A stretch of 61,061 nt of DNA, filler included. It is 8 parts of 8 records of this genome, joined end to end, with 100 filler letters (N's around TTAATTAATTAA, not from the genome) between each part and the next. Parts side by side here need not be neighbours in the genome. Positions count along the whole stretch, not along the records: positions 50,151 to 55,445 come from SRR31147125_22140; 7 more parts are not named here. The stretch is one strand, 5' to 3'. Under the pieces are notes generated by a model. It saw nothing but the letters and a program-made list of their open reading frames with translations, had not been told where the DNA came from and made no database searches. Made by a program: the position numbers and the translations under genes. Numbering within the stretch: position 1 is the first letter of the stretch; each line of letters opens with the position of its first letter. Below, in pieces: positions 389-55,545 of this stretch.

Positions 389-416
389 AGCTTATAACTT
401 TGGTTGTTTAAATTGT

Positions 417-1259
417 CTATTTTTTCAGATGTTCTCCTAAAAAATGCAAGAGTTTACTTACCGAACGTTCGTAATAAAGTCCTAATTTGTGAGGAGTATT
501 GGGTACAACCATAATTCTGGAATCAATGCTTTCATGTTTAAGTTTCTCTGCAAAATTTTTAAATGCATCGGGTCGATCATTATCCCCATTTGCTAGAAAA
601 AAACCATAATCATTTGCCTTCCAAATTGAAACAGCTTTTTCAAGTTCTGCTTCTAGTTGATCCTTTTTAAATCGAAGACCACCACCCATACTCCCTGCAG
701 CACAAAATAGTTCTGGATGCATAACGGATAAATAAACAGAGCCTGAACCACCCATCGAAAATCCTGCTAATGCACGTGATTGAGCTTTAGCAATTGTTCG
801 ATAATCATTATCAATTTTTGGAATGAGCTCATCAATAATCATTCTCTCTACTTCATTACGATACCCACTCATTCCTCCATTTGGAAAAACACAAATTACC
901 TTAGGAAGTAATTCTTGATCAATTGCTTTTAATACCCAACTTGAAAAACCTGCAGCATCTTTTGCTTCATTTCCGCCTGCACCATGAAGAAAATAGATTA
1001 CCGGATATTGCGTATCAGTTTCTTCAGAATATCCAGGGGGAGTCCAAACTGAATAGCCAACTTCATGCCCCATAGCAGAGCTATTCATTATATTGTGCGA
1101 CAATCCATCCATTTCTTTTATGTCTGGGTTGACCCACTTAACTTCCTTTTTTAACCTTTCCATTCTTTGCTGGAAAGTTTCTTTCTTATCCTGCGCATAA
1201 GTTTCAACACAGAATAAAACCAGAATAATTGATAAGATTGCTATTTGTACTTTCATCAA
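417..1259 (-). CDS. secreted alpha/beta hydrolase-fold esterase (CE1/Fes-like)
   Basis: YPVIYFLHG and GFSMGG nucleophile elbow; signal peptide. Confidence 0.85.
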   Translation of the reverse strand: MMKVQIAILSIILVLFCVETYAQDKKETFQQRMERLKKEVKWVNPDIKEMDGLSHNIMNSSAMGHEVGYSVWTPPGYSEETDTQYPVIYFLHGAGGNEAKDAAGFSSWVLKAIDQELLPKVICVFPNGGMSGYRNEVERMIIDELIPKIDNDYRTIAKAQSRALAGFSMGGSGSVYLSVMHPELFCAAGSMGGGLRFKKDQLEAELEKAVSIWKANDYGFFLANGDNDRPDAFKNFAEKLKHESIDSRIMVVPNTPHKLGLYYERSVSKLLHFLGEHLKK

Positions 1260-1304
1260 ATTAGTTTTTAATTAGTTCTATTATTTTGATCTATGCGATT
1301 TCAA

Positions 1305-2794: not shown

Positions 2795-2828
2795 TTAATT
2801 CTGTTGAATTAGATTCGGAATAGAAATA

Positions 2829-2869
2829 AATTATACTTCGCCACTCCAAATTAAGGGCGAAGTATAATT
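2829..2869 (-). terminator. 14-bp inverted repeat downstream of susD (terminator or mRNA-stabilising hairpin)
   Basis: AATTATACTTCGCC...GGCGAAGTATAATT. Confidence 0.55.
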
Positions 2870-2903
2870 CGATTCTTAAACCAAGCAACTATAATATCAT
2901 AAG

Positions 2904-4463: not shown

Positions 4464-4485
4464 AATTTATGTAATTAAGGAATTG

Positions 4486-7400
4486 TTAAAAGCTTACTTT
4501 TACACCTAAAGTATATTGTTTAGTCAATGGATATTGCCCTCTATCAATACCTGCAGTTTCATTGTCTCCAGCAGTTCTCAAACCAATTTCAGGATCATAT
4601 CCGGTATAATCAGTTAACGTAAAAAGGTTGGTAGCTGTAGCATATAACTGGCAGCTAGCTACACCAATTTTAGACACAACTGTATGAGGCAAATCATAAG
4701 CAAGTCGCAAGTTTTTTAACCTCACATACGAAGCATCCTCCACACGGTATTTTGAGATTCGCCCATTGCCATCGCCAACCAAACGTGGTTCTATATTGCT
4801 TGATCCTTCGCCATCCCATGCATCTAACAGCTCTTTACGTGGATATATCGATTTTAATGAATTGTATACATCAACCCCGTGTACTCCTTGAAAAAATACA
4901 GAAAGAGTAACTCCTTTATATGCTAAAGTATTTGTAAGCCCCCAGGTAAAATCGGGAATTGTACTCCCAATAATCTTACGATCATTTTCGGCGTCTACTT
5001 GTCCATCACCATTCAGATCTTTGAAACGAAAATCACCAGGTGCTGTAAACGAACGTCCGGTAATTTCATCTCGAGCCTGAGTATCATAAATAGGCATGTT
5101 ATTATCATCAAAGCCAGTTACTTTTTGGTTTTGATAGGCATGGGCATAAACTTCATCCCAGTTCTGAAAAATACCATCTGTTTCATATCCATAAATAGCA
5201 CCAATCTCATAACCTACACGAGATATGTTTACTCCAGCATTAAAACGATCAGCATTTTCTGGTAGTTTAATTATTTCATTTTTCACAGTACCAAAAACAA
5301 AGTCTGTTGTCCATGTTAATGGCCCTTGAAGGTTAACAGTACTTATAGAAAGATCAAGTCCCTTATTATTTACCTCACCAAGGTTTCCATTCGGATTTGA
5401 CTCATTCCCCAATTCTAATGCAGGAGCGAATGGTAAGAATAAATCAGAAGTGGTTTTATCATAAAAGTCTGCAATAACATTTACCTTACCTCCAAATAAT
5501 CCAATATCAAGAGCAACGTTTGTCATTTTTATTTCTTCCCAACGAAGAAATGTATTTGCTAGTCTTTCAATCGTTGCTCCAACAATTTCACCACCATTAA
5601 ATGAATAGTTAAACTCATTATATCCATTATCTCCTTGTCCCACACTTGAAGCGTATTGATAATTAGGTACATTATCGCTACCACTTATTCCATATCCTGC
5701 TCTTAGCTTAAGATTGCTTAACCATGATAATTCAGGCATAAAGTCCTCTTCCGAAATACGCCATGCTCCTGATACTGCAGGAAATGTTCCCCATCTCTTA
5801 TCTGAACCAAATTTTGATGAACCATCTCGACGAACGGTTGCTGTTAACAGGTATTTCCCTTTGTAATCATAAATAAACCTTCCAAAAAATGAATTAACAC
5901 CAGTTTCTACCTGACCATTTCCGACAGAAGCAGTAAACTCAGGTAGTAAAAGGATTACATTACCATCAGCATCTGTAATTTCCCGTTGAAGATGTGGACG
6001 GTTAAAGAACCAATAGTCCGTATTCTCGAAAGCACCGTCAGTTGCAGAAAATGATGTTCCCAAATAATTTTGAGACTGATACCCAGCTAGTGCCGTAATT
6101 TTATGATCTGTTAAAAACGTTTTGTTATACGTTAACGTATTTTCAATAAACCATGTTCTACCTTCATTTTGATTAAAAATTAAGCGAGTAGCTTCTGGAA
6201 GAACAAGCATAGTTCCTTCAATATCGTTAGATGTTTCGTGTCGTTCCCTTTTCGAATAACTAAAATCAATGGAAGCCATCGTGTGAAAAATTAAACCATC
6301 CATAATTTCAAAATCGATGTAGGCTGAAGACCACACTCTATTGGCAGAAGTTAAATCTGTATTTTCTTTGGCATCCCAGATCGTATGCATATTTTCTTTA
6401 TCCAACAAATTTTCAGCATCCGAATCATGACTGTTCGAGCCTGCATATGTACCATCTGCATTGTAAATAGGCTTGTATACATATGTCCTTAAAGCCCTGT
6501 TTATATAGTCATTTGCGTTATCATTAGGATTAACATTACCCTTTCTGTTAGATACGCTTCTGGAAATTAATAAGGTATTTCCAAACTTAATTTTTTTACC
6601 AATTTTATGATCTGAGTTAAAACGAAGTGTAAACCGTTCCATATCAGAACCTAAAACAACACCAGTTTGGTCAAAGTAAGAAAGAGAAGAGAAATAGTTT
6701 GATTTTTCGCTGCCTCCACTTACTGATAGGTTATGCGATTGAATCTTTCCATTTCTGGTCATTTCACCAATCCAATCATAGGTAGGAATATCTTCACCAG
6801 CCAAAATTCGATTAATAAAAGGTTGTCCCTGATATTCTGTGAATCCTTCTGCCTTTTGAATATCATCATAATATTGCGCCCATTCCGGACCACTTAATTG
6901 ATTATATTTACTTCCATCAAGATCATTTACTGAAGTATAAGCCTCGTAAGTGATGCTCATTTTTTCCTTTGATCCTCTTTTGGTAGTAACAATTACAACA
7001 CCATTACCTGCACGAGCACCATATATGGCAGTGGCAGATGCATCTTTTAAAATATCAATACTTTCAATATCATTAGGGTTTATCATTGAAAGCGGACTAA
7101 CGTCAGATTGACTTCCTCCTTTAACATTACCCAGAATAATTCCATCAATCACATATAATGGTTCGTTATTATTCAGAGTACCAACACCACGAACTCTAAT
7201 GGTAGCACCTGCTCCCGGAACTCCAGAACCTGTAATAACTTGTACCCCTGCTGCTCTACCCGATAAGGATTGCTCCAAACTTGGGACAGGAATCCGAGAT
7301 AATACATCTCCTTTCACTGAAGAAACAGCACCTGTAATATCTTTTCTTTTCTGTGTTCCATATCCAATTGCAACCACTTCTTCTAGCCCAATAGTCTCCT

Positions 7401-8016
7401 CTGCTAAAGACACATCAATATTGGATCTTCCTGACACTGGTATTTCCATTGCCTTCATCCCAACAAAAGAAAATACAAGTATTCCATCTGAAGGAACATT
7501 TGATATAGAATAACCGCCATCAACATTTGTAATTGTTCCATGGGTTGTTCCTTTAATCACAACTGTAACCCCAGGCAAGGGAGAACCTGAAGAATCAGTA
7601 ACCATACCTGAAATTGTTACGGATTGTGCATTGTACTTAGATTCCAAAACCGTTGACAATACGATTGTTCTGTCAACAAGTTGAAATGAAACATTTGTAT
7701 TTTCAAATAAATCACTAAGAATATCATTAACTTTTGCCTCCCTATAATCCACATCTACTCTTCGTTCCAAGTCAATAACATCGCGATTATAAACAAAATT
7801 AAAGTCACTGTTATCCTCAATACCAGCAAGGACTTGCTCAACAGTTGCATTATCCATCGTAATTGTTAATCTTGCTAATTGCGAATAGCTTTCTGAGGCC
7901 ATGAGATTCAAAAACCCCACCAATAAAAGTAATAGTGTTAGTTTCATTTTAAGTCCAGTTTTTTGCTCAAAGCCAATAATCAAGCTACGAGCATAGCACA
8001 TTCGTTTTTTTTTCAT
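4486..8016 (-). CDS. susC: SusC/RagA TonB-dependent transporter with N-terminal signalling (STN) extension
   Basis: EEVVAIGYG, PLYVIDG, DIESIDILKDASATAIYGARAGNGV, C-terminal Phe. Confidence 0.96.
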   Translation of the reverse strand: MKKKRMCYARSLIIGFEQKTGLKMKLTLLLLLVGFLNLMASESYSQLARLTITMDNATVEQVLAGIEDNSDFNFVYNRDVIDLERRVDVDYREAKVNDILSDLFENTNVSFQLVDRTIVLSTVLESKYNAQSVTISGMVTDSSGSPLPGVTVVIKGTTHGTITNVDGGYSISNVPSDGILVFSFVGMKAMEIPVSGRSNIDVSLAEETIGLEEVVAIGYGTQKRKDITGAVSSVKGDVLSRIPVPSLEQSLSGRAAGVQVITGSGVPGAGATIRVRGVGTLNNNEPLYVIDGIILGNVKGGSQSDVSPLSMINPNDIESIDILKDASATAIYGARAGNGVVIVTTKRGSKEKMSITYEAYTSVNDLDGSKYNQLSGPEWAQYYDDIQKAEGFTEYQGQPFINRILAGEDIPTYDWIGEMTRNGKIQSHNLSVSGGSEKSNYFSSLSYFDQTGVVLGSDMERFTLRFNSDHKIGKKIKFGNTLLISRSVSNRKGNVNPNDNANDYINRALRTYVYKPIYNADGTYAGSNSHDSDAENLLDKENMHTIWDAKENTDLTSANRVWSSAYIDFEIMDGLIFHTMASIDFSYSKRERHETSNDIEGTMLVLPEATRLIFNQNEGRTWFIENTLTYNKTFLTDHKITALAGYQSQNYLGTSFSATDGAFENTDYWFFNRPHLQREITDADGNVILLLPEFTASVGNGQVETGVNSFFGRFIYDYKGKYLLTATVRRDGSSKFGSDKRWGTFPAVSGAWRISEEDFMPELSWLSNLKLRAGYGISGSDNVPNYQYASSVGQGDNGYNEFNYSFNGGEIVGATIERLANTFLRWEEIKMTNVALDIGLFGGKVNVIADFYDKTTSDLFLPFAPALELGNESNPNGNLGEVNNKGLDLSISTVNLQGPLTWTTDFVFGTVKNEIIKLPENADRFNAGVNISRVGYEIGAIYGYETDGIFQNWDEVYAHAYQNQKVTGFDDNNMPIYDTQARDEITGRSFTAPGDFRFKDLNGDGQVDAENDRKIIGSTIPDFTWGLTNTLAYKGVTLSVFFQGVHGVDVYNSLKSIYPRKELLDAWDGEGSSNIEPRLVGDGNGRISKYRVEDASYVRLKNLRLAYDLPHTVVSKIGVASCQLYATATNLFTLTDYTGYDPEIGLRTAGDNETAGIDRGQYPLTKQYTLGVKVSF

Positions 8017-8064
8017 AATTTTAAATGTTTAATTAATAGTAAGGTTTTATACCTTTTTAAACAG

Positions 8065-8099
8065 ATGCAGGGAAGAGGGCAATCTTTCCTGCATTTTTT
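8065..8099 (+). terminator. intrinsic terminator oriented antisense to susC
   Basis: Stem ATGCAGGGAAGA/TCTTTCCTGCAT followed by a T-run on the + strand. Confidence 0.6.
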
Positions 8100-8145
8100 G
8101 TTTTATATCATCATTGTATTTCTTTTAAGTTATCTCTTGAAATAA

Positions 8146-9225
8146 TTATCTTTCTTTTGAAAATGTATTATCATCGTTTTGAATAATCTTAATTGATTTC
8201 CACTTAATTGGAAGTGAAACAGCAAATATTTCCATAATCCGATCAATGTTTTGATCTTCAAAAGTTGCATCAAAACGATATTCCATTAACGTTCTATCAT
8301 TCAATACAAATTCCACATTATGCAGCCGTTCTAATCGTCTCAATATTTCTTTGAATTGAGTATTCTTGAATACATACTTCCCATTTACCCATCCAGTAAA
8401 AGCTTCAGCATTTCGTGCTTTATCAATTACAATAGCATTTTCTTTTCTATATACTCTTCCAACTTCTCCAGGACTCATTTTGTATTCACCATTTACCGGA
8501 TTGCCCTTTTTATTCAGCTTTACAATTGATATTTTACCTTCAAGCAAAAATGTTTCTATGTCAGGATCATCATCATAAGCTCTAATATTAAAAGTTGTAC
8601 CGTAAACCTTTACCTGAACTCCTGAAGTAGTTACCAGCAAAGGCTTATTTTCGTTTTTAGTTACTTTGAATAACCCCTCTCCCGTTAATTTCACCTCTCT
8701 ATATTCTTGTTTACTAAGAATTGGATATTGGATTGAGCTACCAGAATTTAGCCATACTTCGGAACCATCAGGCAATACTGCTTTCATTTTTCCTCCAATA
8801 GGGGCAGATACGGTATTATACATTTCTGACAATTGATCAATTTCCTCATTATTAGAAAATTCCAACTTATGAATTCTATCAACAAACCAAATTGAGGCAA
8901 TCAACAACGGAATAAATAATATTGCTGCTACTTTGCTAAACCAGCTAATAATTTTTCTGTTTTGTAGTTTTGGTTGGAGAGGAAGTTTGTGTGTTTCTAT
9001 ACCAAGTTTCCCCCATAAATAATTCAATTCCTCTTCGGAAAAGTCTAATTCTTTAAAGCTTACTCCATCTATAACCGTTCTCGCTTTAATAAATTCATCT
9101 TTACTAATGGAATATTGCTCAATAAATGCATTCTTCTGCTTACTATCAAACGAATCAAAATGAATAAGTCCATTTTGAAATTCTTCATTAGCAAAAAGCT
9201 CATAAAACTCTTTTCTATCCATCAT
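8146..9225 (-). CDS. FecR family anti-sigma factor
   Basis: TM helix, LPDGSEVWLNSGS, VKVYGTTFNI; lies between the ECF sigma gene and susC. Confidence 0.92.
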   Translation of the reverse strand: MMDRKEFYELFANEEFQNGLIHFDSFDSKQKNAFIEQYSISKDEFIKARTVIDGVSFKELDFSEEELNYLWGKLGIETHKLPLQPKLQNRKIISWFSKVAAILFIPLLIASIWFVDRIHKLEFSNNEEIDQLSEMYNTVSAPIGGKMKAVLPDGSEVWLNSGSSIQYPILSKQEYREVKLTGEGLFKVTKNENKPLLVTTSGVQVKVYGTTFNIRAYDDDPDIETFLLEGKISIVKLNKKGNPVNGEYKMSPGEVGRVYRKENAIVIDKARNAEAFTGWVNGKYVFKNTQFKEILRRLERLHNVEFVLNDRTLMEYRFDATFEDQNIDRIMEIFAVSLPIKWKSIKIIQNDDNTFSKER

Positions 9226-9246
9226 ATTCTAAATAAAATTCCCTAA

Positions 9247-9927
9247 CTATTTATTAAGAGTATGTAATAGAAAAATAGTACTGCAAAAAATTGATTTATT
9301 TTTTTGAAATAGTAAAAAAAGATTAAACAACATGAGATCAATGTCATTGAAATCATTCTTTGAATTGTCTGCAATGCCTACTGATAGCTTTTGAAGAATT
9401 TTAGGCATGTTGTTTTTAATTGATTGTTCCTTAATATTAATCACATTGGATATTTCCTTATAAGTTAACTGGTGATAAAACCGAAGGAAGATAATTTCTC
9501 GTTGATTTGCGGGTAACGAATTCAAATTACGAATCAGCTTTTCTCTTACTTTAGCTGATATAGATTCTTTATCAATAAATTCATCGGGTTCAAAAACTAA
9601 AGCTTTTATATCTCCTTCTGAGATATCATTAATTGGCTTTGTCTTAAGTTCATGATTCTTAGAAAGAAAAAGTCTCCTTCGCAAGGAAACAAATAAATAG
9701 GCCTTCAAGTTAGATACATCACTAAGCCCATGTCTATTTTGCCAAATATTTATAAAAAGATCTTGTATATGATCTCTAACAAAATCGGGAAAGGGAATCA
9801 GTTTTATACCATAACTATACAATTTTGGATAATAAAACTTAAAGATTTGTGAAAATGCCTTATGATCGTCTGACTTCATTCTTTTCCACAAAAAATCTTC
9901 ATCTATTTTATCAGCTTTTCCCTGCAT
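9247..9927 (-). CDS. ECF RNA polymerase sigma-70 factor
   Basis: AFSQIFKFYYPKL, IQDLFINIW, LPANQREIIFLRFYHQLTYKEIS. Confidence 0.9.
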   Translation of the reverse strand: MQGKADKIDEDFLWKRMKSDDHKAFSQIFKFYYPKLYSYGIKLIPFPDFVRDHIQDLFINIWQNRHGLSDVSNLKAYLFVSLRRRLFLSKNHELKTKPINDISEGDIKALVFEPDEFIDKESISAKVREKLIRNLNSLPANQREIIFLRFYHQLTYKEISNVINIKEQSIKNNMPKILQKLSVGIADNSKNDFNDIDLMLFNLFLLFQKNKSIFCSTIFLLHTLNK

Positions 9928-10263
9928 GTATTTTGATCTTCCCTTCTTTTAGATAATCAGAAATTGAACTTTTAAAATAAAAATAGACTTTAAATCTACT
10001 ATTCTAATTTAAATATAAAGATGAATGTATCAAATAATTATATAAAAGATTGATTTTACAAAAGAAAAAAACGCTCATTACTAACGCCCAACAAAGAGAA
10101 CATATGACCTCTGAAAATTCATTTCATTAAATCTTAATATGACTTCACACAATAGTCAACTATGATAAACAAATGATCAATACATGAAATAAAATAGAGA
10201 TTTTTTATAGCCTCTGCCCCACTAATAACAGCAAAAAAAAGCGCTTAAGTTTAATTACTTAGG

Positions 10264-10363
10264 NNNNNNNNNNNNNNNNNNNNNNNNNNNNNNNNNNNNN
10301 NNNNNNNTTAATTAATTAANNNNNNNNNNNNNNNNNNNNNNNNNNNNNNNNNNNNNNNNNNNN
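10264..10363. other. artificial contig linker
   Basis: 100 bp of Ns around TTAATTAATTAA (stops in all six frames). Confidence 0.99.
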
Positions 10364-10399
10364 TGAGCCGCATGCTCTAACCAACTGAGCTACATCGCC
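10364..10399 (-). tRNA. 5' half of a tRNA, most likely tRNA-Met(CAT), truncated by the contig end
   Basis: Reverse complement GGCGATGTAGCTCAGTTGGTTAGAGCATGCGGCTCA gives acceptor arm, D arm and anticodon arm up to CA. Confidence 0.8.
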
Positions 10400-10453
10400 A
10401 AAAAACCCGATCTTTATATATTTTTATTTTAGTGCTGTCAATAGTTATTTTTA

Positions 10454-12787
10454 CTATTTCTTAGGAAGTCGATCAAAATCGATTACAGTCATATTAAATG
10501 TGGCCAGGTTGTCCGGCAGATCGGCAAAGACAAGTAAAAATGGAATGTTTTTACTCGGGCCTACTAAAAAATCGGGGCTGTTTCGGGGGGTTGTCAATCT
10601 TGTAGTGAGCGTTTTTATATCCATTGTTTTAAGCTGGTCATCTGGGATCTTTTTACCACATAGAACCGAGAGCGTTTTTATCTTCTTTTTCTCATTATCA
10701 AGAAGGGTGCATTTTAGTTTGATGTTTTTGCAAACCACTTCAGATTGGTTGAAGACCGCGCCTCGAATAACAAACAGGGTACCGGCAGATTCATGTTCGA
10801 TGAATTTGGAGACAATGGTTTTTTTGATGGGCGTCAGCCTAACCGGTGGTGGGGGCGGCTTGGGAATGTATTGATCTATGAACGGGATTTTGAGATCTGA
10901 AATATAGGGGATCTCCACACCGGTCATGATGGCTCCCACATATCCTGCAATGGCGACCACCAATAGAAAAAGAGTCATTACAACTATTTTGCCAAGGGCA
11001 AAGGATTTTTTGGGCTTTTCCTGATCTTTTTCAAAAAGAAGATGAGGTCGTTCTCCGGACAGGGTTGAGGACTCTTCCTCAGCCGAGTGACTGGCAGATG
11101 CTACTGCGGCAAGCTCCTCAATCTCTTTACTTTCTTTAATGATATCCGGCTCAATATCCCCTTCGTCATCAAAATCTTCATATTCCGATGTCCGAAACTC
11201 ATCTTTCAAGCCCTCTTCAGCCGGGGAGATAATTTCTTCGCGATCCGGTGTTTTGGAGAGTTCTTCATCCATTGAAAAATCAAGATCCATGGCCGTTGGG
11301 CTTTCGAGATGCAATTGGTCTTGACCATTTGAATCATCGGTATCAGGTGGCAGAGGCAACACATCCTCCATGGATGAAAAGTCGAGATCTAAATCGGTGT
11401 CGTCTTCCAATTCAAATTCAAGGGTGTCTTCTTCGCCGTGATCGTCATCATCGGTTGGTTCGTCATCAAATGAGAAATCGAGATCTATATCATCATCCGA
11501 AGTGTCTGCGTCTACTGAAAAATCAAGATCCAACTCATCGCTTTCCATACCATCTTCGTCCATGGAAAAATCTAAATCAAGATCATCGTCATCAGGTAAG
11601 GAAATCTCTGAAGAAGAGACTGCATCACCGGCGTCATCGGAAAAGTCAAGATCTAATTCCGCCCCCTCTTCAATGTCAAAAGAAGAATCCAATGGCGGCG
11701 CATCCGACGGCGTTGTGGGTGCGTCATCTTCCAGTGAAAAGTCGAGGTCAAGATCCAGGTTGAGGTCATCTTGGTCGTCGTCGGATGATACGAGGGGTGA
11801 TGGCGTTGCATCCGGTTCAGGTGCAGCATCATCATCCAGAGAAAAATCGAGATCCAGCTCAATCCCTTCGGTTCCAGAAGGGAGAGCTTGAGGGGTGTCG
11901 GATACTTGATCTAACGAGAGGTCTGACGGACTGTCGTCATCGTCCAAAGAAAAATCAAAGTCTAGTTCCAGTTCCGGCGCGGCACTCGATGTCGGTTCCG
12001 GTGTATCCAATGATATGTTTTGATCGGCTAGGGAGACGTCTTCATCCAGGGAAAGATCAAGCTCCGGTACCGGAGAGGCAGCTGAATCTTCAGCCTTTGG
12101 CGTTGAATCGAGTATGCCAATTTCATCTGAGGTTCCTTCCAAATCGCCGGACATGTCCTGGTCTTCATCCAGTGAGCCGGCCATGTCCAGCTCCAATGAG
12201 AGAGCCTCGTCAGATACTTGAGTCGTTTCAATCTCTGCAGGCTTTTCTTTCGATTCCAGCTCATCTTCCAGCGAAAATGTCATGTCTGCCGAATCAGAAG
12301 CATCTTGAGAAGACTTATCTTCACTCTTGAACTTTTCTCCAAGTTCATCTTCAAGATTCATTTCATTGCCAAGGGTGTCAACAGAAAGATGGGGATCCGA
12401 TTTTTCAGTCGGGGCTTCGGTAAGATCAGACGACGTATCACCAATAGTGGGGTCATCGGAAGCCGTTTTTTCAATCGTGATTTCATTTGCTTCTATGGTA
12501 AGGGAAGAGTCGTCAATGGTAATTTCTTCTTCAAACTCAAGGGCGGGCTCGGAAGCAGATGGAGCGCTTTGCGCCGGGGGGAAAGATTCCGGGGGCGAGG
12601 CAATTGAAGGCTTTTCCGAAATAGCTGTTGGGGTAGGTACGGCAGTTTCCATTGAAGGTGTGTCAGTGGGAGGAGAAGCTATAAAAATATGCTTGCAAAT
12701 GGTGCAACGGACTTTAGATCCATCCGGTTTTAAAATGGATTCATCCAGGTTAAACTTTGTTGAGCACGCTTCACAGGTGATAATCAT
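10454..12787 (-). CDS. zinc-ribbon (MJ0042-type) protein with long acidic linker, TM helix and DUF3426-like C-terminal domain
   Basis: MIITCEAC...KVRCTIC at the N-terminus, repeated LDLDFS acidic motifs, one TM helix, LFVIRG C-terminal domain. Confidence 0.8.
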   Translation of the reverse strand: MIITCEACSTKFNLDESILKPDGSKVRCTICKHIFIASPPTDTPSMETAVPTPTAISEKPSIASPPESFPPAQSAPSASEPALEFEEEITIDDSSLTIEANEITIEKTASDDPTIGDTSSDLTEAPTEKSDPHLSVDTLGNEMNLEDELGEKFKSEDKSSQDASDSADMTFSLEDELESKEKPAEIETTQVSDEALSLELDMAGSLDEDQDMSGDLEGTSDEIGILDSTPKAEDSAASPVPELDLSLDEDVSLADQNISLDTPEPTSSAAPELELDFDFSLDDDDSPSDLSLDQVSDTPQALPSGTEGIELDLDFSLDDDAAPEPDATPSPLVSSDDDQDDLNLDLDLDFSLEDDAPTTPSDAPPLDSSFDIEEGAELDLDFSDDAGDAVSSSEISLPDDDDLDLDFSMDEDGMESDELDLDFSVDADTSDDDIDLDFSFDDEPTDDDDHGEEDTLEFELEDDTDLDLDFSSMEDVLPLPPDTDDSNGQDQLHLESPTAMDLDFSMDEELSKTPDREEIISPAEEGLKDEFRTSEYEDFDDEGDIEPDIIKESKEIEELAAVASASHSAEEESSTLSGERPHLLFEKDQEKPKKSFALGKIVVMTLFLLVVAIAGYVGAIMTGVEIPYISDLKIPFIDQYIPKPPPPPVRLTPIKKTIVSKFIEHESAGTLFVIRGAVFNQSEVVCKNIKLKCTLLDNEKKKIKTLSVLCGKKIPDDQLKTMDIKTLTTRLTTPRNSPDFLVGPSKNIPFLLVFADLPDNLATFNMTVIDFDRLPKK

Positions 12788-12948
12788 AATCCTCCCCTCG
12801 TCATATGCAATTCAATCGAAAACCGATTGTGCCCGGTGCCGGAAGTTCGACCTCAATCAAGATGTTTCATGTTTGCACTTAAATTGTATGGGGAAACGTT
12901 CTTGAAAAGTGTAAACAGCCTTACGGCTGAATGAAGGAAGTCGATATG

Positions 12949-23074: not shown

Positions 23075-23174
23075 NNNNNNNNNNNNNNNNNNNNNNNNNN
23101 NNNNNNNNNNNNNNNNNNTTAATTAATTAANNNNNNNNNNNNNNNNNNNNNNNNNNNNNNNNNNNNNNNNNNNN
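23075..23174. other. artificial contig linker
   Basis: Ns plus TTAATTAATTAA. Confidence 0.99.
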
Positions 23175-30682: not shown

Positions 30683-30782
30683 NNNNNNNNNNNNNNNNNN
30701 NNNNNNNNNNNNNNNNNNNNNNNNNNTTAATTAATTAANNNNNNNNNNNNNNNNNNNNNNNNNNNNNNNNNNNNNNNNNNNN
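30683..30782. other. artificial contig linker
   Basis: Ns plus TTAATTAATTAA. Confidence 0.99.
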
Positions 30783-36221: not shown

Positions 36222-36321
36222 NNNNNNNNNNNNNNNNNNNNNNNNNNNNNNNNNNNNNNNNNNNNTTAATTAATTAANNNNNNNNNNNNNNNNNNNNNNN
36301 NNNNNNNNNNNNNNNNNNNNN
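36222..36321. other. artificial contig linker
   Basis: Ns plus TTAATTAATTAA. Confidence 0.99.
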
Positions 36322-44910: not shown

Positions 44911-45010
44911 NNNNNNNNNNNNNNNNNNNNNNNNNNNNNNNNNNNNNNNNNNNNTTAATTAATTAANNNNNNNNNNNNNNNNNNNNNNNNNNNNNNNNNN
45001 NNNNNNNNNN
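44911..45010. other. artificial contig linker
   Basis: Ns plus TTAATTAATTAA. Confidence 0.99.
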
Positions 45011-50050: not shown

Positions 50051-50150
50051 NNNNNNNNNNNNNNNNNNNNNNNNNNNNNNNNNNNNNNNNNNNNTTAATT
50101 AATTAANNNNNNNNNNNNNNNNNNNNNNNNNNNNNNNNNNNNNNNNNNNN
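50051..50150. other. artificial contig linker
   Basis: Ns plus TTAATTAATTAA. Confidence 0.99.
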
Positions 50151-50227
50151 AAATTATGCAAACTCAAATTCAGTATCTTAATTATATAAATTTTAATTAG
50201 TGATATTATCTTTATAATATAAAGCAG

Positions 50228-52077
50228 GTGTTAAGGTTGTTTAAAACTTTTTTTAAAATAGAAAATTTAACATACAATAATGAAAGTTTAAATTCGTTGA
50301 AGAATATATCTTTTGATATGAAGCAGGGTGAAGTTTTGGCTTTGATAGGAGATTTTGACTATAATGTGGATAATTTCCTAAATAGTTTTGAAGATAAGAA
50401 GAGTGGTAAAGGAAAAGTAATTTACAAAGATCAAGTTAACAATCTATCAGAATCAATAGCTGAGGGTGATTTTTCTATTTTGTTTCAGAAATCTACATTA
50501 ATAGAAAAATTAAGTGTATATGAAAATCTTCATCTGCGAAAATATCCCAAAAGAAGATTTTTACCAATTATAAATTGGAAAAAAATAATTGATAAATCTG
50601 AACGGTGGTTCAAAAACTATAATATCGACATTGATGTTAGGAAATCTGTAAAAGATTTAAGTAATAGCGAAAAAAAAATGCTTAGATTAATAAAAACATT
50701 TATTATGGAACCAGATATGACTATTCTACACAACCCCACTGATGAGCTAAACTCTCTAATGATAGAAAAATTATATAATATTATATCTAACTACAAATCC
50801 AAGGGGAAAAGTATCCTATATATGACAAATAAATGGGAGGAAGCTCTAAAAGTAGCAGATAGAATGTTAGTTATATACGAAGGACGAATAGTAGGGCAAT
50901 TAACATCTGAGGAAGCCAAAAAAATCCCAAAAAATTGATATATATGCTTGAGAATAATAAAACATCACTAAGAGGTTTAGACGATGAAACGAGATTAATA
51001 CTAAGCTCAGTAATGAAAGCAGCTGAATATATTAGCTCAAATTATGAACTAAATGATGTACTGTTATTATTAGCCAAACAAGCTGTTGAAGTAATGAATG
51101 CTAACGGATGTATTATAAATCTGATTGATGAAGATACAGAAAGTATAATTGAGAAAGTTGAGTATAAAAAAGAGTTATCACTATCAGCTAACCTGAAAAA
51201 AGATGTAGTTATGAAAATTGCAAAAAAAGAGAATTTTTTTTATGCAAATAAACATGAAAAAGACTTCTTTGAACTATTTGATGAGATTAACGATGTTAGA
51301 ACTGTTATCATCTCTCCAATATTTATTAGATCACACATTACAGGGGTTATACAGCTGATATACGATAATTACTATATCTATTCAGAGGAGGAGCAGCTAT
51401 TTCTAAACGCATTCTCCAAGCAAGCGGCAATAGCTATAGAGGATACTAAACTAATGGGGAGATCTGCTTTGTTACAGGAGAGTCACCATAGGATAAAAAA
51501 TAGTTTGCAATCAGTTATTAATTTGATAAATATGCAAAAGAGAGAGGCGCTTAAAAATCCATCATTTGATATAGCGAATTCTCTAGAAAATGTTATCTCA
51601 AGGGTAAAAAGTATTGCGTCAGTTCATGATTTGTTATCCAAAGAGAAATTAGGTAGAGGAATAATCAATTTGAATGATATAGTTAAAATAATTCTAGAAA
51701 ATTTATTGATATTTGATAAAAAAATTAAGATAGATAGTGAAATTGAGAATATAATGATTCCTTATAATAAGGCTAGTTCAATAGCGTTAATTATTAATGA
51801 ATTAATTAGTAACTGCTATAAACATGCATTTATTAATCAAGAATCTGGCGAGATATTTATTAAATGTGCTAGAGATTCAAATGAGATAAAACTTAGTGTG
51901 GTGGATAACGGAATAGGTATTTGTGAAGAAAAAATAAGAAAGAGTACAAGCTTAGGAATATCCATAGTTAACTCAATTGTGTTTTATGAATTTAAGGGAA
52001 AAATCTCTTATGAAAAGCTAGATAAGGGAACAAAAGTAAAAATAGTCATTCCAATGGATAAATTCTTCAGAGAGTAA
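50228..52077 (+). CDS. degenerate sugar-ABC ATPase domain plus GAF plus HisKA_2/HATPase histidine kinase (probably one ~616-aa gene broken at A-runs 50918-50934; otherwise two genes overlapping by 4 nt)
   Basis: RbsA-like N-terminus with Walker motifs lost; GAF (VIISPIF...AAIAIE); ESHHRIKN, NELISNCYKHAF, DNGIG, SLG. Confidence 0.8.
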
Positions 52078-52093
52078 TTTTTTTGAATTTAAC

Positions 52094-52122
52094 TTGACAA
52101 AGAAATTTTTACATATTATACT
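52094..52122 (+). promoter_or_regulatory. sigma-70 promoter for the ANTAR regulator and downstream rbs genes
   Basis: TTGACA-17 nt-TATACT. Confidence 0.8.
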
Positions 52123-52182
52123 TGAGGTGAAAATGGTTCAAAATAGAATAAAATGTTTCTAAAGAGGATAGGAAGGTTGTAT

Positions 52183-52764
52183 ATGGGTTCGCTGAGAATA
52201 TTGCTGGCGGAAGATGAGTTTTTATGTTTGATAGGGATAAAGAATAATCTGGAGGATTTAGGTCACGAGATTATTGGAGAAGCATCTGATGGTTTAGAGC
52301 TGATAAAGATGGCAAAGGAGAGGAAGCCGGATTTGATATTAACTGATGTTAATATGCCTTCGCTTAGCGGAATAGAGGCTATTAGAAAGATAAATGAAAC
52401 TCAAACTATTCCTACAATAGTTATAAGTGGCTATCATGAAGATAGGCTGGTAAAAGAGGCTTCGCATCTGGGAGTATATAACTATCTGGTAAAACCTGTA
52501 GATATGAAGGATTTGAAAATAGCTATTGAAGTATCATTAGCTAGGCACAAAGATTTCATTAATATCGAAAAAGAACTGGAAGAGACCAAAGAAACATTGG
52601 AAAAAAGAAAAGTTTTGGAGAAAGCAAAAGGAATTCTGATGGAGCATCAGAAGCTCTCTGAAAATGAAGCTTTTAAGAAATTACAAAAAATGAGTAAAGA
52701 TAAAAATAAAAAAATGATATTAGTAGCGAATGAGATTATAAATGCTTATGAGCTGCTTAAATAA
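52183..52764 (+). CDS. ANTAR-domain response regulator (EutV/PdtaR-like)
   Basis: Receiver (LAEDE, DVNMP, YLVKP) plus RKVLEKAKGILM...EAFKKLQKMS ANTAR signature; RBS favours ATG 52183. Confidence 0.93.
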   Translation: MGSLRILLAEDEFLCLIGIKNNLEDLGHEIIGEASDGLELIKMAKERKPDLILTDVNMPSLSGIEAIRKINETQTIPTIVISGYHEDRLVKEASHLGVYNYLVKPVDMKDLKIAIEVSLARHKDFINIEKELEETKETLEKRKVLEKAKGILMEHQKLSENEAFKKLQKMSKDKNKKMILVANEIINAYELLK

Positions 52765-52780
52765 AACTGAATATTTGACT

Positions 52781-52879
52781 CTGTATTAATGGCTGATACG
52801 GCGTGATAAGGTAATGGTGCCTTGTGTTATAAAGTGATGAAAAAATTATTTTCATTATTTTATTGCGCAAGGTTTTTTT
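52781..52879 (+). promoter_or_regulatory. ANTAR dual-hairpin antitermination leader overlapping an intrinsic terminator
   Basis: P1 CTGTATT-AATGGCT-GATACGG; P2 ATAAGGT-AATGGT-GCCTTGT; terminator stem 52819-52873 plus T-tract. Confidence 0.82.
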
Positions 52880-52941
52880 ATTTTCATTGAAATATAGGAA
52901 AGAGCTAAACTTTTAAAATTAAAAATATCAGAGGTGAATGT

Positions 52942-53856
52942 ATGAAAAAAATCATGGTTTTGGGAAGTTTAAATATGGATTTAGTAACGAGAGTTAAAGC
53001 AACTCCAAAGGTAGGAGAAACAATTCACGGTGAAGGATTTGAGAAGATTCCTGGTGGAAAGGGAGCTAATCAAGCAGCGGCAATAGGAAGAATAGGTGGA
53101 CTGATATCTATGCTTGGTAAGGTTGGAGACGATGCTTTCGGTGAGGAATTAATAAAAAGTCTAAATGGGAGTAGCGTTGATTGTAGTTACGTCTCAAAAG
53201 ATAAGGCACCCACTGGGACAGCCTTAATTATGGTAAACGAGAGCGGAGATAACTCAATAGTTGTTATAGCTGGAGCAAATTTTAGCTTGAAAGCAGAGGA
53301 TATTCATGAAGAGATGTTTGACGATGTTAGTTATCTATTAGCTCAACTGGAAACACCTACTGATACTATAGAGCAAGCTTTTAAAATAGCGAAAAATAAA
53401 GGTGTTTATACAGTTCTCAATCCTGCTCCAGCAAAGGTATTGAGCGATGAACTACTTAGAAATACAGATTTATTAGTACCAAATGAGACGGAATTTGAGA
53501 CTTTAACTGGATACAGCACTAAATCAGAAGATGAATTTGAGAAGGGAATAAAATTCCTATTTAATAAAAATATGAAAGCTGTGTTAGTAACTCTAGGTGA
53601 AAAGGGAGCCAGATATATTGATAGAGACGGAGCTGACATAAGTGTGTCAGCATACAAAGTCGACGCAGTAGATACAACAGCAGCAGGAGATAGCTTCATA
53701 GGTGGATTTCTAACTACTCTTAGTGGAGGTTCCTCTGTAAAAGAAGCAATGGAAACAGCGGCGAAAGTAGCAGCAATAACAGTAAGTAGATTTGGAGCAC
53801 AAAGCTCTCTACCAACTAAAGATGAATTAGAAAGTTTCGAAGGGGTGAAAAGATAA
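52942..53856 (+). CDS. rbsK: ribokinase
   Basis: GSLNMD, PGGKGANQA, NPAPA, PNETE, DTTAAGDSF. Confidence 0.96.
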   Translation: MKKIMVLGSLNMDLVTRVKATPKVGETIHGEGFEKIPGGKGANQAAAIGRIGGLISMLGKVGDDAFGEELIKSLNGSSVDCSYVSKDKAPTGTALIMVNESGDNSIVVIAGANFSLKAEDIHEEMFDDVSYLLAQLETPTDTIEQAFKIAKNKGVYTVLNPAPAKVLSDELLRNTDLLVPNETEFETLTGYSTKSEDEFEKGIKFLFNKNMKAVLVTLGEKGARYIDRDGADISVSAYKVDAVDTTAAGDSFIGGFLTTLSGGSSVKEAMETAAKVAAITVSRFGAQSSLPTKDELESFEGVKR

Positions 53857-54251
53857 TGAAAAAAGGATACCTGTTAAATGCTGAAATTATTGAAGTTATT
53901 AGCAAAATGGGACATACAGATGAGATAGTAATAGGAGATTGTGGCTTACCTGTCCCTGATAATGTAAAGAGGATTGACTTAGCTCTAATCCAGGGGGTTC
54001 CATCATTTATAGATGTACTTGAGATATTATTAAAAACATACGAATGCGAAGAGTACTACTTGGCAGATGAGATAAAAGAGGGGAATCCGGCAGTTGAGGA
54101 GGAAGTAAAAAAACTACTTGCCGGCAAAAAAGAAAACTATATAAGCCATGAGGACTTAAAAGAGAGAAGTAAAAATGCGAAGGCTGTAATCCGTACAGGG
54201 GAGTGTACCCCCTATGCAAATATCATATTGAAATCAGGTGTTATTTTTTAA
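53856..54251 (+). CDS. rbsD: D-ribose pyranase
   Basis: MGHTD..IGDCGLP, RTGECTPYANIIL. Confidence 0.96.
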   Translation: MKKGYLLNAEIIEVISKMGHTDEIVIGDCGLPVPDNVKRIDLALIQGVPSFIDVLEILLKTYECEEYYLADEIKEGNPAVEEEVKKLLAGKKENYISHEDLKERSKNAKAVIRTGECTPYANIILKSGVIF

Positions 54252-54269
54252 TAGAGAGGAAAAACGATT

Positions 54270-55445
54270 ATGAAATGCAAGATTCTTGAAATGAAGAATG
54301 TAACAAAACTTTTTCCTGGTGTAAAGGCTCTAGACGGTGTTCATCTAAATGTATATGACGGTGAGATAATGGCTCTCTTAGGTGAAAACGGAGCAGGGAA
54401 ATCAACACTAATGAAGATTTTATCAGGAGTGTATAAAAAAACTGACGGAACGATCATCTACAAAGGTGAAGAACTAGAGGTACATGGTACCAAAAGTGCT
54501 CAAGATGCAGGGATAACTATTATCCATCAAGAGTTAAACTTAATAGATGAACTGTCAGTTGGTGAGAATATATTTCTTGGTCGAGAGCCAAAAAAAGCGG
54601 GAAAAGTTATTGATTGGAAAAAACTATTTAACATGGCACAGGAATTATTAGACACGTTAAATCTAGAGATGAGCCCAAAGGAGAAGATAAAAAATCTATC
54701 AATTGGACATAAACAGATGGTTGAGATAGCAAAGGCACTTTCATTAGATGCAGAATTGATAATTATGGATGAACCTACAGATGCACTAACAGATCAAGAA
54801 ACAGAGAGTTTATTTAAAGTTATCCAGAAATTAAAATCCGCAGGTAAAAGCATAGTTTATATATCGCATAGGTTAAAGGAGATATTTGAGATATGTGACG
54901 ATGTAACGATCCTTCGTGATGGACAGTTCATTGCGGAAAAATCAGTAAAAGACATAAATGAGGATGAGCTAATAGAGATGATGGTTGGGCGTAAACTAGA
55001 AGAGCAGTTCCCATACCAAAAAGATCTTATTGGTGAGAGTGTATTAAGTGTAAAAGAGATATCCAACGAATATATAAGCAATGTATCATTTGAGCTAAAA
55101 AAAGGTGAGATACTGGGAGTAGCTGGGCTAATGGGAGCAGGTAGAACCGAGTTAGCGAAATCAATATTTGGGAACTATAAGATTAAATCAGGTAAGGTAG
55201 AGATAAACGGAAAAATACTTAAACTTCATTCAGAAAAATCAGCGTTAGATGCAGGTATCAGTTATGTATCTGAGGATAGGAAAAAAGATGGGCTGGTACT
55301 GGGAATGAGTGTGAAGGAAAATATATCACTTACAGCTCTAAAAGAGCTAACGAAAAACAGCATAATTAATAGAAATATGGAGAAAGAAGTGGCTGAGGAT
55401 TACGTTAGCAAACTTCTAATAAAAACACCATCAATTAATCAAAAA
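54270..55445 (+). CDS. rbsA: ribose ABC transporter ATP-binding protein, 3' truncated
   Basis: GENGAGKST, MDEPTDAL, ISHR, GLMGAGRTE, SEDRK. Confidence 0.94.
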
Positions 55446-55545
55446 NNNNNNNNNNNNNNNNNNNNNNNNNNNNNNNNNNNNNNNNNNNNTTAATTAATTA
55501 ANNNNNNNNNNNNNNNNNNNNNNNNNNNNNNNNNNNNNNNNNNNN
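55446..55545. other. artificial contig linker
   Basis: Ns plus TTAATTAATTAA. Confidence 0.99.

Follow-up and report, generated by a model that had tools for sequence, protein, structure and literature searches.

A degenerate ABC nucleotide-binding domain fused to a soluble histidine kinase beside an ANTAR regulator and a ribose operon

The window is a stretch of 61,061 nucleotides in which contigs are concatenated through artificial N44-TTAATTAATTAA-N44 linkers. Everything described here lies on one contig of 5,295 bases (50151-55445; Table 1), having a GC content of 32.5%, compared with 54.5% and 40.7% for the neighbouring contigs. It is bounded by linkers, and there is thus no genomic context outside it. 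The rbsA gene ends at the contig end, leaving the first nucleotide-binding domain (NBD1) intact and NBD2 partial, and Pfam finds two ABC_tran stretches in it. Because of this truncation, the match to NF008030 scores below the cut-off of 745 bits. The likely true start of the kinase is TTG 50237, which follows AGGTG, as judged by eye against the N-terminus of the homolog P0010, and that of the regulator is ATG 52183 (MGSLRILLAEDE), from comparison with the related locus L002. A promoter-like site upstream of the regulator gene, TTGACA-17-TATACT, agrees with 11 of 12 consensus positions. Such sites occur at the level found in shuffled sequence, hence this site is weak evidence.

Table 1. Features of the contig at 50151-55445, in window coordinates
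Feature	Coordinates	Strand	Basis
Kinase gene, 5' part: degenerate ABC nucleotide-binding domain (pseudo-NBD)	50228..50938	+	Pfam ABC_tran
Kinase gene, 3' part: GAF + HisKA_2 + HATPase_c	50935..52077	+	Pfam
A7 homopolymer, A8 in true gene	50918..50924	+	Logan contig run X1; L001; homolog linker
Promoter-like site	52094..52122	+	Consensus match only
REC-ANTAR response regulator	52153..52764	+	Pfam; PDB
Leader hairpin 1, loop AAUGGCU	52781..52800	+	RNAfold; covariance model
Leader hairpin 2, AAGGU-AAUGGU-GCCUU	52806..52825	+	RNAfold; covariance model
Intrinsic terminator	52819..52879	+	MFE vs shuffles
rbsK, ribokinase	52942..53856	+	TIGR02152, 347 bits; cut-off 299.65
rbsD, D-ribose pyranase	53856..54251	+	NF008761, 177 bits; cut-off 93
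rbsA, ribose ABC ATPase, 5' part	54270..55445	+	NCBIfam RbsA NF008030, 558.8 bits

The open reading frames at 50228 and 50935 are a single gene once a lost A is restored. In the window a TGA at 50936-50938 overlaps a TTG start, and the gene is split in two because one base has been lost from a run of eight A residues. A Logan contig from X1, the probable source run, which is an independent assembly (depth 25.9), has one added A behind 50917 and no other difference, no substitution included, over the 5,295 bases. The closest genomic relative, L001, also has A8 at the corresponding homopolymer, and the linker of the homologs runs across the fusion point (EEAKKNP..L). The first-pass annotation had suggested that a single extra A would join the two frames. 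This proved true, and the A belongs in the first of the A-runs.

The fused product is a soluble histidine kinase of about 613-616 residues, composed of the pseudo-NBD, a linker, GAF, HisKA_2 and HATPase_c in that order. Of the 120 best homologs of the kinase, 116 have the same architecture, for which a search had been suggested, on one polypeptide (590-660 residues); the remaining four come from short contigs, none longer than 3.7 kb. The product of the 3' part is 76% identical to P0010, itself a fused protein of 614 residues, and matches a blue-light histidine kinase in the PDB (4r39/4r3a, E 5e-11). The dimerization and phospho-acceptor motif of HisKA_2 is ESHHRIKN. No transmembrane segment was found in the kinase, in agreement with the first reading, the highest Kyte-Doolittle mean over 19 residues being 1.6-1.8 and located in the GAF domain.

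The regulator matches Response_reg (2.8e-25) and ANTAR (1e-18) of Pfam and is similar over its full length to the PDB entries 1s8n (1.5e-35) and 6wsh (EutV, 1.5e-33). The former, a "putative antiterminator", is presumably Rv1626/PdtaR. Between the regulator gene and rbsK there is a conserved, covarying two-hairpin element overlapping a terminator (52781-52879), at the place given to an ANTAR leader in the first pass. The 3' arm of hairpin 2 doubles as the 5' arm of the terminator, which consists of a long stem (52819-52872) followed by U7 (52873-52879). Its folding energy is -38.1 kcal/mol (z = -7.19), a stability reached by none of 200 shuffles. A covariance model of the two hairpins was matched 38 times at E <= 2e-4 in a total of 1.12 Mb, with 12 matches outside the seed and a single one in the window (52768-52825, 50.2 bits). 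At E <= 1 it gave none in 16 loci (L063-L078), all of which are without a member of the fused-kinase cluster. The locus matches directly follow the regulator gene in 35 of 37 cases and directly precede a binding-protein gene in 27 of 37. Compensatory changes occur in 9 of the 10 pairs, and pairing holds in 88.2% of cells, compared with 72.2% in shuffles, none of 500 reaching the observed value. In 35 of 38 first and 37 of 38 second hairpins the loop has 7 nucleotides, its second being A and its fourth G, whereas the textbook, EutV-type target loop is a hexaloop with A at position 1 and G at position 4.

The catalytic signatures are retained in both the kinase core and the regulator, and hairpin 2 competes with a strong terminator; the locus is therefore read as a switch in which a two-component system controls rbsKDA(CB) by antitermination. 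Once phosphorylated, the regulator would bind the predicted leader hairpins, blocking the terminator, and transcription would then enter the ribose genes. The circuit and the fused architecture, as described, are very probably correct.

The pseudo-NBD is matched over the whole ABC_tran model (E 3.8e-10, 41 bits). Alignment to NBD1 of the neighbouring RbsA reproduced the motif losses noted earlier: GENGAGKST of Walker A becomes GDFDYNVDN, IMDEPT of Walker B becomes ILHNPT, and ISHR of the H-loop becomes MTNK, while the Q-loop/helical stretch is kept (LSV.EN, I.WKK). When counted over the 116 fused homologs, the catalytic motifs are not intact in the family either. The Walker A pattern is retained in 7 proteins. 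The Walker B Asp position holds H in 66, Q in 30, Y in 13, N in 5 and L in 1; the second Gly of the signature is E in 110, K in 4 and S in 2; and the H-loop His position is K in 98, N in 6, M in 5, Q in 4 and S in 1, followed by Trp in all 116. The Q-loop glutamine is retained in only 77. The canonical P-loop belongs to a Halanaerobiales subclade (7/116; 4/59 in another set) and most members have lost it, apparently on several occasions. The family has an invariant motif of its own, T-K/N-x-W-E-E-ALK-x-ADR. Presumably no member still hydrolyses ATP and most no longer bind it, although the NBD fold signature is kept. Divergence is greatest in the pseudo-NBD, whose mean pairwise identity is 39.7%, compared with 54.8% for GAF, 65.5% for DHp and 49.0% for CA. 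The best-conserved segments of the pseudo-NBD are the counterparts of the Walker B/D-loop and of the H-loop region, which in real NBDs face the partner NBD.

The best NCBIfam matches of the pseudo-NBD, all far under the cut-offs, are the N-terminal halves of AlsA, AraG, MglA, XylG and RbsA, and phmmer likewise finds N-terminal halves of two-NBD sugar ATPases (a class named "CUT2" in TCDB). NBD1 of these ATPases aligns end to end with the N-terminal 235 residues of the kinase, and the fusion point falls at their inter-NBD linker. The kinase differs from them in that Walker A, the Walker B Asp, the signature and the H-loop are replaced and in that GAF and the kinase domains stand in the place of NBD2. 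In a tree with 38 NBD1 and 37 NBD2 sequences of neighbouring sugar ABC ATPases, 59 of 59 pseudo-NBDs fall into one clade (support 100) apart from both halves. A decaying copy of rbsA is therefore ruled out. The ancestor of the pseudo-NBD appears to be the NBD1 of a sugar ABC ATPase with two NBDs, the GAF-kinase module having replaced NBD2.

Sixty-one fused kinases were found in 59 related genomic loci. A REC-ANTAR regulator adjoins 57 of them, and a two-NBD sugar ABC ATPase or BPD_transp_2 permease lies within six genes of 50, which bears out the conserved neighbourhood that had been anticipated. Where misses were looked at, a contig end or an inserted transposase accounts for them. The gene order in L002 is HK-RR-rbsK-rbsD-rbsA-rbsC-rbsB. 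Control of a ribose operon, as first proposed, is very probable for this contig, where rbsKD and rbsA follow; the system is not ribose-specific, as the operons beside most relatives encode a Zn-dehydrogenase, an FGGY kinase and a class II aldolase. Each of five genomes has one fused kinase (two in one genome) among many two-NBD ATPases. Full-text literature searches found no paper on a fusion of an ABC domain with a GAF/HisKA_2 kinase. The system is a real, widespread and uncharacterized variant of ANTAR two-component control, a design recurring beside sugar transporters in many bacteria, and the pseudo-NBD is rather likely to be a new type of input domain in such control.

Within the kinase, the pseudo-NBD is probably the specificity or input domain. 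Its divergence, even though the linked operons differ, was counted towards this role, as were the presence of one fused kinase per genome among many two-NBD ATPases and the lack of a transmembrane segment. In the leading explanation, the kinase dimer would present two pseudo-NBDs, and these would dock at an NBD site of the cognate transporter, for which the permease dimer's coupling helices are the likeliest candidate. A ligand-loaded binding protein outside would be read as an altered spacing of the pseudo-NBDs, which would be relayed via GAF to the kinase. Docking on the permease is putative, a possibility with more doubt than confidence attached. Conserved synteny is equally expected from regulation alone, the Q-loop glutamine is often missing, and the operon's own complete ATPase should fill both permease sites, no additional "sensor" permease having been found. 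In a mirror-tree analysis, correlation with the permease or the ATPase was no stronger for the pseudo-NBD than for the kinase core (for example, partial r for the permease, given the regulator, 0.35 and 0.33, respectively). The leading explanation as a whole, antitermination together with transporter reading, is held tentatively, at slightly less than an even chance; the deviation of the loops from the hexaloop and the frameshift in the window copy were set against it.

The pseudo-NBD, GAF or both might instead be a purely cytoplasmic sensor of an imported sugar, sugar phosphate or nucleotide, the NBD fold being reused as a pocket that makes no contact with the transporter. Ligand regulation is known in soluble HisKA_2 kinases that have a GAF domain and an ANTAR partner, and is described for PdtaS (PMC12132213). 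The Halanaerobiales P-loop could still bind nucleotide, the mirror-tree gives no special coupling to the transporter, and ligand pockets are often the most variable domain, as is the pseudo-NBD. This reading is nevertheless rather unlikely: the P-loop is gone in most members, one transporter class is associated though the catabolic genes differ, GAF varies little between operons that serve different sugars, and the best-conserved pseudo-NBD segments are the partner-facing ones. Less probable still is that the pseudo-NBD pairs with the genuine ATPase, RbsA or an equivalent protein, and not with the permease, reporting on the ATPase cycle or competing with one half of the enzyme. An origin in the NBD1 of this ATPase class would fit. 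With the kinase core controlled for, the partial correlation to NBD1 of the ATPase is 0.24 (p 0.016), but the kinase core has an identical value. Moreover, the signature that would complete the partner's ATP site mostly has Glu for its second Gly, and both ATPase halves are already covalently paired. That there are two separate genes, a functionless ABC-like frame left by a decaying rbsA duplicate with a genuine frameshift and an ordinary PdtaS-like kinase, is suggested by the overlapping TGA and TTG of the window sequence. It is highly improbable in view of A8 in the independent assembly and in L001, the fusion in nearly all homologs, the one ancient clade set apart from the ATPases nearby, an identity of only 25% to NBD1 of the contig's own RbsA, and the invariant residues specific to the family.

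The EutW/EutV system of Enterococcus faecalis, which serves ethanolamine utilization, likewise consists of a HisKA_2-type kinase and a REC-ANTAR regulator. Phosphorylated EutV is described as binding paired small hairpins, the second of which overlaps an intrinsic terminator (PMC3369931, PMC8934654). EutW differs in having no ABC-like or GAF domain and in sensing ethanolamine, and the targets are eut genes. Transporter-coupled signalling is found in BceS-BceAB, PhoR-PhoU-PstB and MalK-MalT. Ks-Amt5 is described as a transporter-kinase fusion (PMC5764959). These four share the idea of a kinase or regulator reading the state of a transporter, not free ligand, but they bind a working transporter via other surfaces or have a whole membrane transporter domain fused. 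Here, by contrast, a soluble kinase carries a dead copy of the ATPase subunit as a fused domain, whose contact with the transporter is putative. In AmiC/AmiR and NasS/NasT an ANTAR regulator is likewise under a cytoplasmic protein derived from a part of an ABC transporter. AmiC and NasS have the binding-protein fold; the co-opted part is thus the substrate-binding protein, which binds ligand directly, and there is neither kinase nor NBD. AmiC is described as repressing AmiR (PMC12591593). PdtaS/PdtaR of Mycobacterium tuberculosis likewise consists of a soluble HisKA_2 kinase that contains GAF and a REC-ANTAR protein as its partner. PdtaS has GAF and PAS domains without an NBD-like domain, and the pair is not known to be linked with operons for sugar ABC transporters. 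One of the fused-kinase homologs carries the NCBI name PdtaS.

The genes described here appear to form a widespread, apparently unstudied variant of ANTAR two-component antitermination in which a dead transporter-ATPase domain would serve as the input. They fill one whole contig, 50151-55445 (5,295 bases, 32.5% GC), which is flanked in the window by stretches of 54.5% and 40.7% GC. The window is made up of eight stretches joined by N44-TTAATTAATTAA-N44 linkers (10264-10363, 23075-23174, 30683-30782, 36222-36321, 44911-45010, 50051-50150 and 55446-55545). The GC content of its contigs spans 32.5% to 54.5%, suggesting a mixed or loosely binned assembly. Stretches lying side by side are not genomic neighbours, and the genomic context was restricted to contig 50151-55445, on which every gene is on the + strand.

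Features of contig 50151-55445 and the evidence for each
Feature	Coordinates	Strand	Evidence
ABC_tran ORF	50228-50938	+	Pfam PF00005, whole-model match, weak (41 bits)
GAF + HisKA_2 + HATPase_c	50935-52077	+	Pfam
REC + ANTAR	52153-52764	+	Pfam
Leader hairpin 1	52781-52800	+	RNAfold of 52776-52885
Leader hairpin 2	52806-52825	+	RNAfold, seen when nascent part alone folded
Terminator stem, then U7	52819-52872	+	RNAfold, full sequence, -38.1 kcal/mol
Ribokinase (RbsK)	52942-53856	+	TIGR02152, 347 bits vs cut-off 299.65
D-ribose pyranase (RbsD)	53856-54251	+	177 bits vs cut-off 93
RbsA, first 392 residues	54270-55445	+	best NCBIfam match RbsA, 558.8 bits

The rbs operon is recognized by RbsK and RbsD equivalogs over their curated cut-offs together with an RbsA fragment, which scores below the NCBIfam cut-off because the contig end cuts the gene. 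RbsC and RbsB fall beyond the contig end. In L002, a syntenic locus of a Fusobacteriales MAG, the gene order of the window is followed by RbsC and RbsB, both over cut-off. The longest-ORF calls have probably placed two starts too early: relatives point to TTG 50237 for the kinase (called at 50228) and to ATG 52183 for the regulator (called at 52153).

The ORFs at 50228 (ORF1) and 50935 are very probably one gene rather than two, because the lengths of relatives, their linker, a second assembly and the closest genomic relative agree. When the kinase ORF is searched against the database, 116 of the 120 best relatives are proteins of 590-660 residues with the ABC-like domain first, and the other four lie on contigs of at most 3.7 kb and start mid-way. 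The linker of the relatives, ..EEAKKNP..L.., is obtained in the window with A8 instead of A7 at 50918-50924. The Logan assembly of X1, the probable source run, holds a 5,296-base contig that covers the whole stretch without substitutions at a depth of 25.9, with exactly one A inserted behind 50917; a second assembler produced it, probably from the same reads, and it does not count as an independent sample. L001, a Fusobacteriaceae MAG locus and the closest genomic relative, has A8 at the same place. Of three further runs, the Logan contigs of X2 and X3 contain just short, diverged fragments of the stretch, and those of X4 contain none. The split in the window is most simply a homopolymer miscall, the alternative being that A7 may be a real minor variant. 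The first-pass annotation had proposed that one extra A fuses the two ORFs and that homologs with the architecture ABC_tran+GAF+HisKA_2+HATPase_c on a single polypeptide should be sought; both expectations are borne out. The restored product has ~616 residues, or ~613 from the likelier TTG start, within the family range.

ORF1 matches PF00005 ABC_tran with E 3.8e-10 over model positions 1-136 of 137. Alignment to RbsA NBD1 and to 116 full-length relatives reproduces the motif losses, and the retained Q-loop stretch, that had been read from the window by eye. ORF1 reads GDFDYNVDN at Walker A, ILHNPT (without the catalytic Glu) at Walker B, LSNSEKK in place of LSGGQ at the signature and MTNK at the H-loop. 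The stretch following the Q-loop (LSV.EN, P, I.W.K) is retained. The identity to the window's own RbsA NBD1 is 25% over 220 residues. The domain, a pseudo-NBD, lacks every catalytic motif of an ABC ATPase, yet it matches the NBD sequence signature. No stretch in either ORF is hydrophobic enough for a transmembrane segment, as had been noted for this soluble kinase.

Intact Walker motifs in homologs had been named beforehand as the mark of a mere decaying rbsA copy. The Walker A pattern GxxGxGK[ST] is left in 7 of the 116 relatives, and at the Walker B Asp position H stands in 66, Q in 30, Y in 13, N in 5 and L in 1. The catalytic Glu of Walker B, lost in the window, is retained in 93 of 116 relatives. 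The signature has Glu for its second Gly in 110 of 116, and the H-loop has Lys for its His in 98 of 116. A Trp immediately after the H-loop His position is present in 116 of 116, inside the family-specific T-K-Q-W-E-E-ALK-x-ADR. ATP hydrolysis is predicted to be gone in every member, because even in those that keep a P-loop (GETGAGKTT) the H-loop His, the signature and the Walker B Asp are missing. The ability to bind ATP was probably lost on several occasions. In the locus set, the P-loop keepers (4 of 59) together make up a single nested subclade of Halanaerobiales. This P-loop-keeping set (proteins P0024, P0049, P0065, P0068, P0074, P0109 and P0122; loci L007, L011, L013 and L027) provides a natural contrast for whether nucleotide binding still counts.

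In an exhaustive phmmer search of 1.84 billion representatives with ORF1, the fused kinases rank first, followed by two-NBD proteins of ~500 residues aligned mostly in their first half. A word-indexed search with ORF1 alone gave 9 matches, only distant ordinary ATPases; in such searching the fused relatives surfaced only with the kinase-ORF query. The best NCBIfam models for ORF1 are AlsA, AraG, MglA, XylG and RbsA, matched in their N-terminal halves only; the scores of 85-103 bits fall far below the cut-offs of about 700-800. An NBD-kinase fusion is not covered by any NCBIfam model.

In a tree of 134 NBDs (FastTree, midpoint root, several long branches flagged), a branch with support 100 sets 59 of 59 pseudo-NBDs apart from the 38 NBD1 and 37 NBD2 domains of the adjacent ATPases. 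Because the pseudo-NBDs form this separate clade, a recent decaying copy of the adjacent rbsA is ruled out as their origin. The pseudo-NBD also evolves faster than a working NBD: between the window and L002 its identity is 44%, compared with 76% in RbsA NBD1.

A search with residues 1-400 of P0010, a fused 614-residue homolog, found no other close output architecture. Language-model look-alikes of P0010 (Atlas) include ABC_tran+HisKA_3+HATPase_c proteins of Chloroflexota (score 0.86) and ABC_tran+GAF(+GAF) proteins of 406-527 residues (scores 0.80-0.82). They are no more than leads, and none of them came up in the search with residues 1-400.

The kinase ORF contains HisKA_2 (PF07568, 8.5e-13) and HATPase_c (PF02518, 3e-12). 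Its H-box, ESHHRIKN, is invariant in 43 homologs, and the N and G boxes can be seen in the translation by eye. The protein is accordingly classed, by prediction, as a HisKA_2/HWE-type sensor histidine kinase. The regulator matches PF00072 (2.8e-25) and ANTAR PF03861 (1e-18), has the receiver pocket residues LLAEDE, TDVNMP and LVKP by eye, and matches EutV and 1s8n over its full length, features that predict a REC-ANTAR response regulator. The pair belongs to the HisKA_2/REC-ANTAR class, in which EutW/EutV and PdtaS/PdtaR are the closest studied pairs.

The leader element lies directly 3' of the regulator stop codon in the window and in L002; rbs transcription must therefore start upstream in these two cases. 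The candidate promoter-like site 52094-52122 perhaps drives it. It matches the consensus but is a weak candidate, since a promoter scan gave as many sites as expected from shuffled sequence. Most other loci have room, by eye, for a promoter of the leader's own. The terminator has a z of -7.19, with 0 of 200 shuffles as stable. Hairpin 2 and the terminator are predicted to be mutually exclusive, because GCCUUGU is common to the 3' arm of the former and the 5' arm of the latter. The same two hairpins are visible in the leaders of relatives. An Rfam search of the contig gave no meaningful match and no family for the dual-hairpin element.

A strict hairpin scan (exact hexaloops, stems >=4) found the pair in 1 of 41 leaders, and a covariance model seeded from 26 leaders was used instead. 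Run over 1.12 Mb, it gave 38 matches at E <= 2e-4; 12 were absent from the seed, and the whole 61-kb window contributed a single one. The other 37 fall in the loci, 35 of them just 3' of the regulator gene and 27 just 5' of a binding-protein gene. L063-L078, 16 loci without a member of the fused-kinase cluster, gave 0 matches at E <= 1. Paired cells amount to 88.2%, compared with 72.2% after shuffling (0 of 500 reach it), in an alignment fitted to the model and so leaning towards its structure; sliding the partners lowers the value to 35-52%. Compensatory changes are found at 9 of 10 pairs of helix 1 and at 2 of 5 pairs of helix 2, a weak support, where the GG/CC core is invariant. The ANTAR motif, as described in PMC3369931 and PMC8934654, consists of two hexaloops with A1 and G4, the second hairpin overlapping the terminator. 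The hairpin 2 loop of the window, AAUGGU, fits this motif. Loops across the 38 elements are mostly of 7 nt, with A-N-G-R in all 38 first loops and in 36 of the 38 second loops; they share the G at position 4 with the published motif but have the A at position 2, not 1.

Some loci carry additional elements. In about a dozen, the main match to the leader model is preceded at 70-80 nt by a second, weaker match (for example L017:8991-9044, L005:3973-4027, L035:12648-12692, L004:12667-12718, L039:1744-1800 and L019:8802-8843), which may represent tandem hairpin pairs. In three Tissierellaceae leaders (L034:10788-11038, L038:7108-7285 and L041:8617-8821) a promoter-like TATAAT is closely followed by the palindrome TGAAAACATTTTC, which to the eye looks like a catabolite-responsive (cre) site; a search for cre-like patterns stayed at chance level and gave no site in the window leader.

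A scan of one genome per species found 435 stretches with a relative, and the best 80 of these (78 loci) were analysed by calling and clustering their ORFs and naming the clusters by Pfam. In these best 80 of 435 stretches, the kinase cluster has 61 members in 59 loci. A REC-ANTAR gene is immediately beside 57 of the 61 kinases, a two-NBD ATPase or BPD_transp_2 permease lies at most 6 genes away from 50, and binding-protein, ATPase and permease clusters occur together near 30. Of the exceptions examined (L021, L044, L050, L052 and L061), L021, L044 and L052 end at a contig edge and L061 has a transposase insertion. The commonest gene order is kinase, regulator, Peripla_BP_4 binding protein, ATPase, permease, Zn-dehydrogenase, FGGY kinase and class II aldolase; in Bacillaceae loci the kinase gene is divergent from the remaining genes. 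The neighbourhoods are conserved and their catabolic genes vary; the design is therefore tied to one transporter class and not to ribose. The first-pass annotation described a real feature and read it correctly in its motifs, fusion and neighbourhood (ANTAR regulator plus sugar ABC operon).

The family comprises 291 database proteins at E <= 0.001, with members known from Bacillota, Fusobacteriota and Thermotogota and, among cultured genera, from Halalkalibacter, Clostridium, Halanaerobium and Gracilibacillus. Five whole genomes searched have one full-length fused copy each among many two-NBD ATPases, with two in tandem in one of them. In the L002 genome no gene exceeds the cut-off of the E. 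coli-type RbsR equivalog; several LacI-family genes are present, none adjoining rbs, from which nothing firm is drawn.

Judging from the parts found and from how EutW/EutV-type systems are known to work, the kinase very probably phosphorylates the REC-ANTAR protein, which would then bind the leader hairpins and prevent the terminator from forming, giving antitermination. The assignment of the sugar-sensing part of the kinase is less certain. Mean pairwise identity is 39.7% for the pseudo-NBD, 54.8% for GAF, 65.5% for DHp and 49.0% for the catalytic domain. A role of the pseudo-NBD as the specificity-determining input fits these values, because it is the most divergent domain while the GAF domain stays similar across operons for different sugars. 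The pseudo-NBD has retained its fold over hundreds of millions of years, stripped of its chemistry. That a chemistry-free fold, N-terminal in a dimeric kinase, is always encoded beside the same class of transporter suggests that it contacts a transporter of that class.

The favoured reading, a tentative one, is that the pseudo-NBD docks on the coupling helices of the permease. The kinase dimer may, just as tentatively, replace the ATPase on the permease dimer of a sugar ABC transporter, making binding protein, permease and kinase a transmembrane receptor. Two dead NBDs would sit on the coupling helices, the ligand-loaded binding protein outside would close or open the pseudo-NBD pair inside, and this motion, not ATP, would switch the kinase and hence ANTAR antitermination. 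Direct sensing of a small molecule by the kinase, against which the similarity of the GAF domain across operons for different sugars speaks, is a somewhat less likely rival, and pairing of the pseudo-NBD with the real ATPase is improbable. Mirror-tree and partial Mantel comparisons over 33 loci showed the pseudo-NBD and the kinase core behaving alike.

In the full-text literature within reach, which leaves out subscription journals and supplementary tables, neither an NBD-kinase fusion nor ANTAR control of sugar ABC operons in Firmicutes/Fusobacteria is described. The accessible parts of PMC3369931, PMC8934654 and a 2025 review likewise contain neither the fusion nor ANTAR-run sugar ABC operons; the supplementary lists of PMC3369931 and of later ANTAR surveys, outside reach, may already include these leaders. 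Sugar and polyol ABC operons would join the short list of pathways under ANTAR antitermination. The receptor arrangement, if true, would be a third signalling use of ABC components, after substrate-binding-protein-like sensors and working-transporter co-sensors.

Soluble kinases need a means of learning what is outside the cell. A dead ATPase domain that plugs a kinase into a transporter, if this is its role, would be a simple and evolvable solution, and would account for a protein family now filed in public databases under the wrong label 'ribose transport ATP-binding protein' or left with a generic histidine-kinase name. Because cultured members exist, the idea can be tested directly, and the natural series from P-loop-retaining to P-loop-less pseudo-NBDs bears on what a dead NBD still does. 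Public names of fused proteins include 'histidine kinase dimerization/phosphoacceptor domain-containing protein', 'ATP-binding cassette domain-containing protein' and 'PdtaS'. The wrong names 'ribose transport system ATP-binding protein' and 'ribose import ATP-binding protein RbsA' arise because of the dead NBD; P0013, P0018, P0020, P0072, P0074, P0088, P0280 and P0281 are among the records so named.

Two Petrotogaceae/Thermotogaceae loci, L028 (~7900-12830) and L032 (~400-5870), have two kinase-regulator pairs in tandem, with a hairpin-terminator element after the first regulator, ahead of the second kinase, and another after the second regulator. These pairs could form a cascade. L028 has a further covariance match of 53.2 bits at L028:21521-21584, ~10 kb from the kinase genes and after an unrelated 368-residue ORF, and its regulator may have a second target operon.
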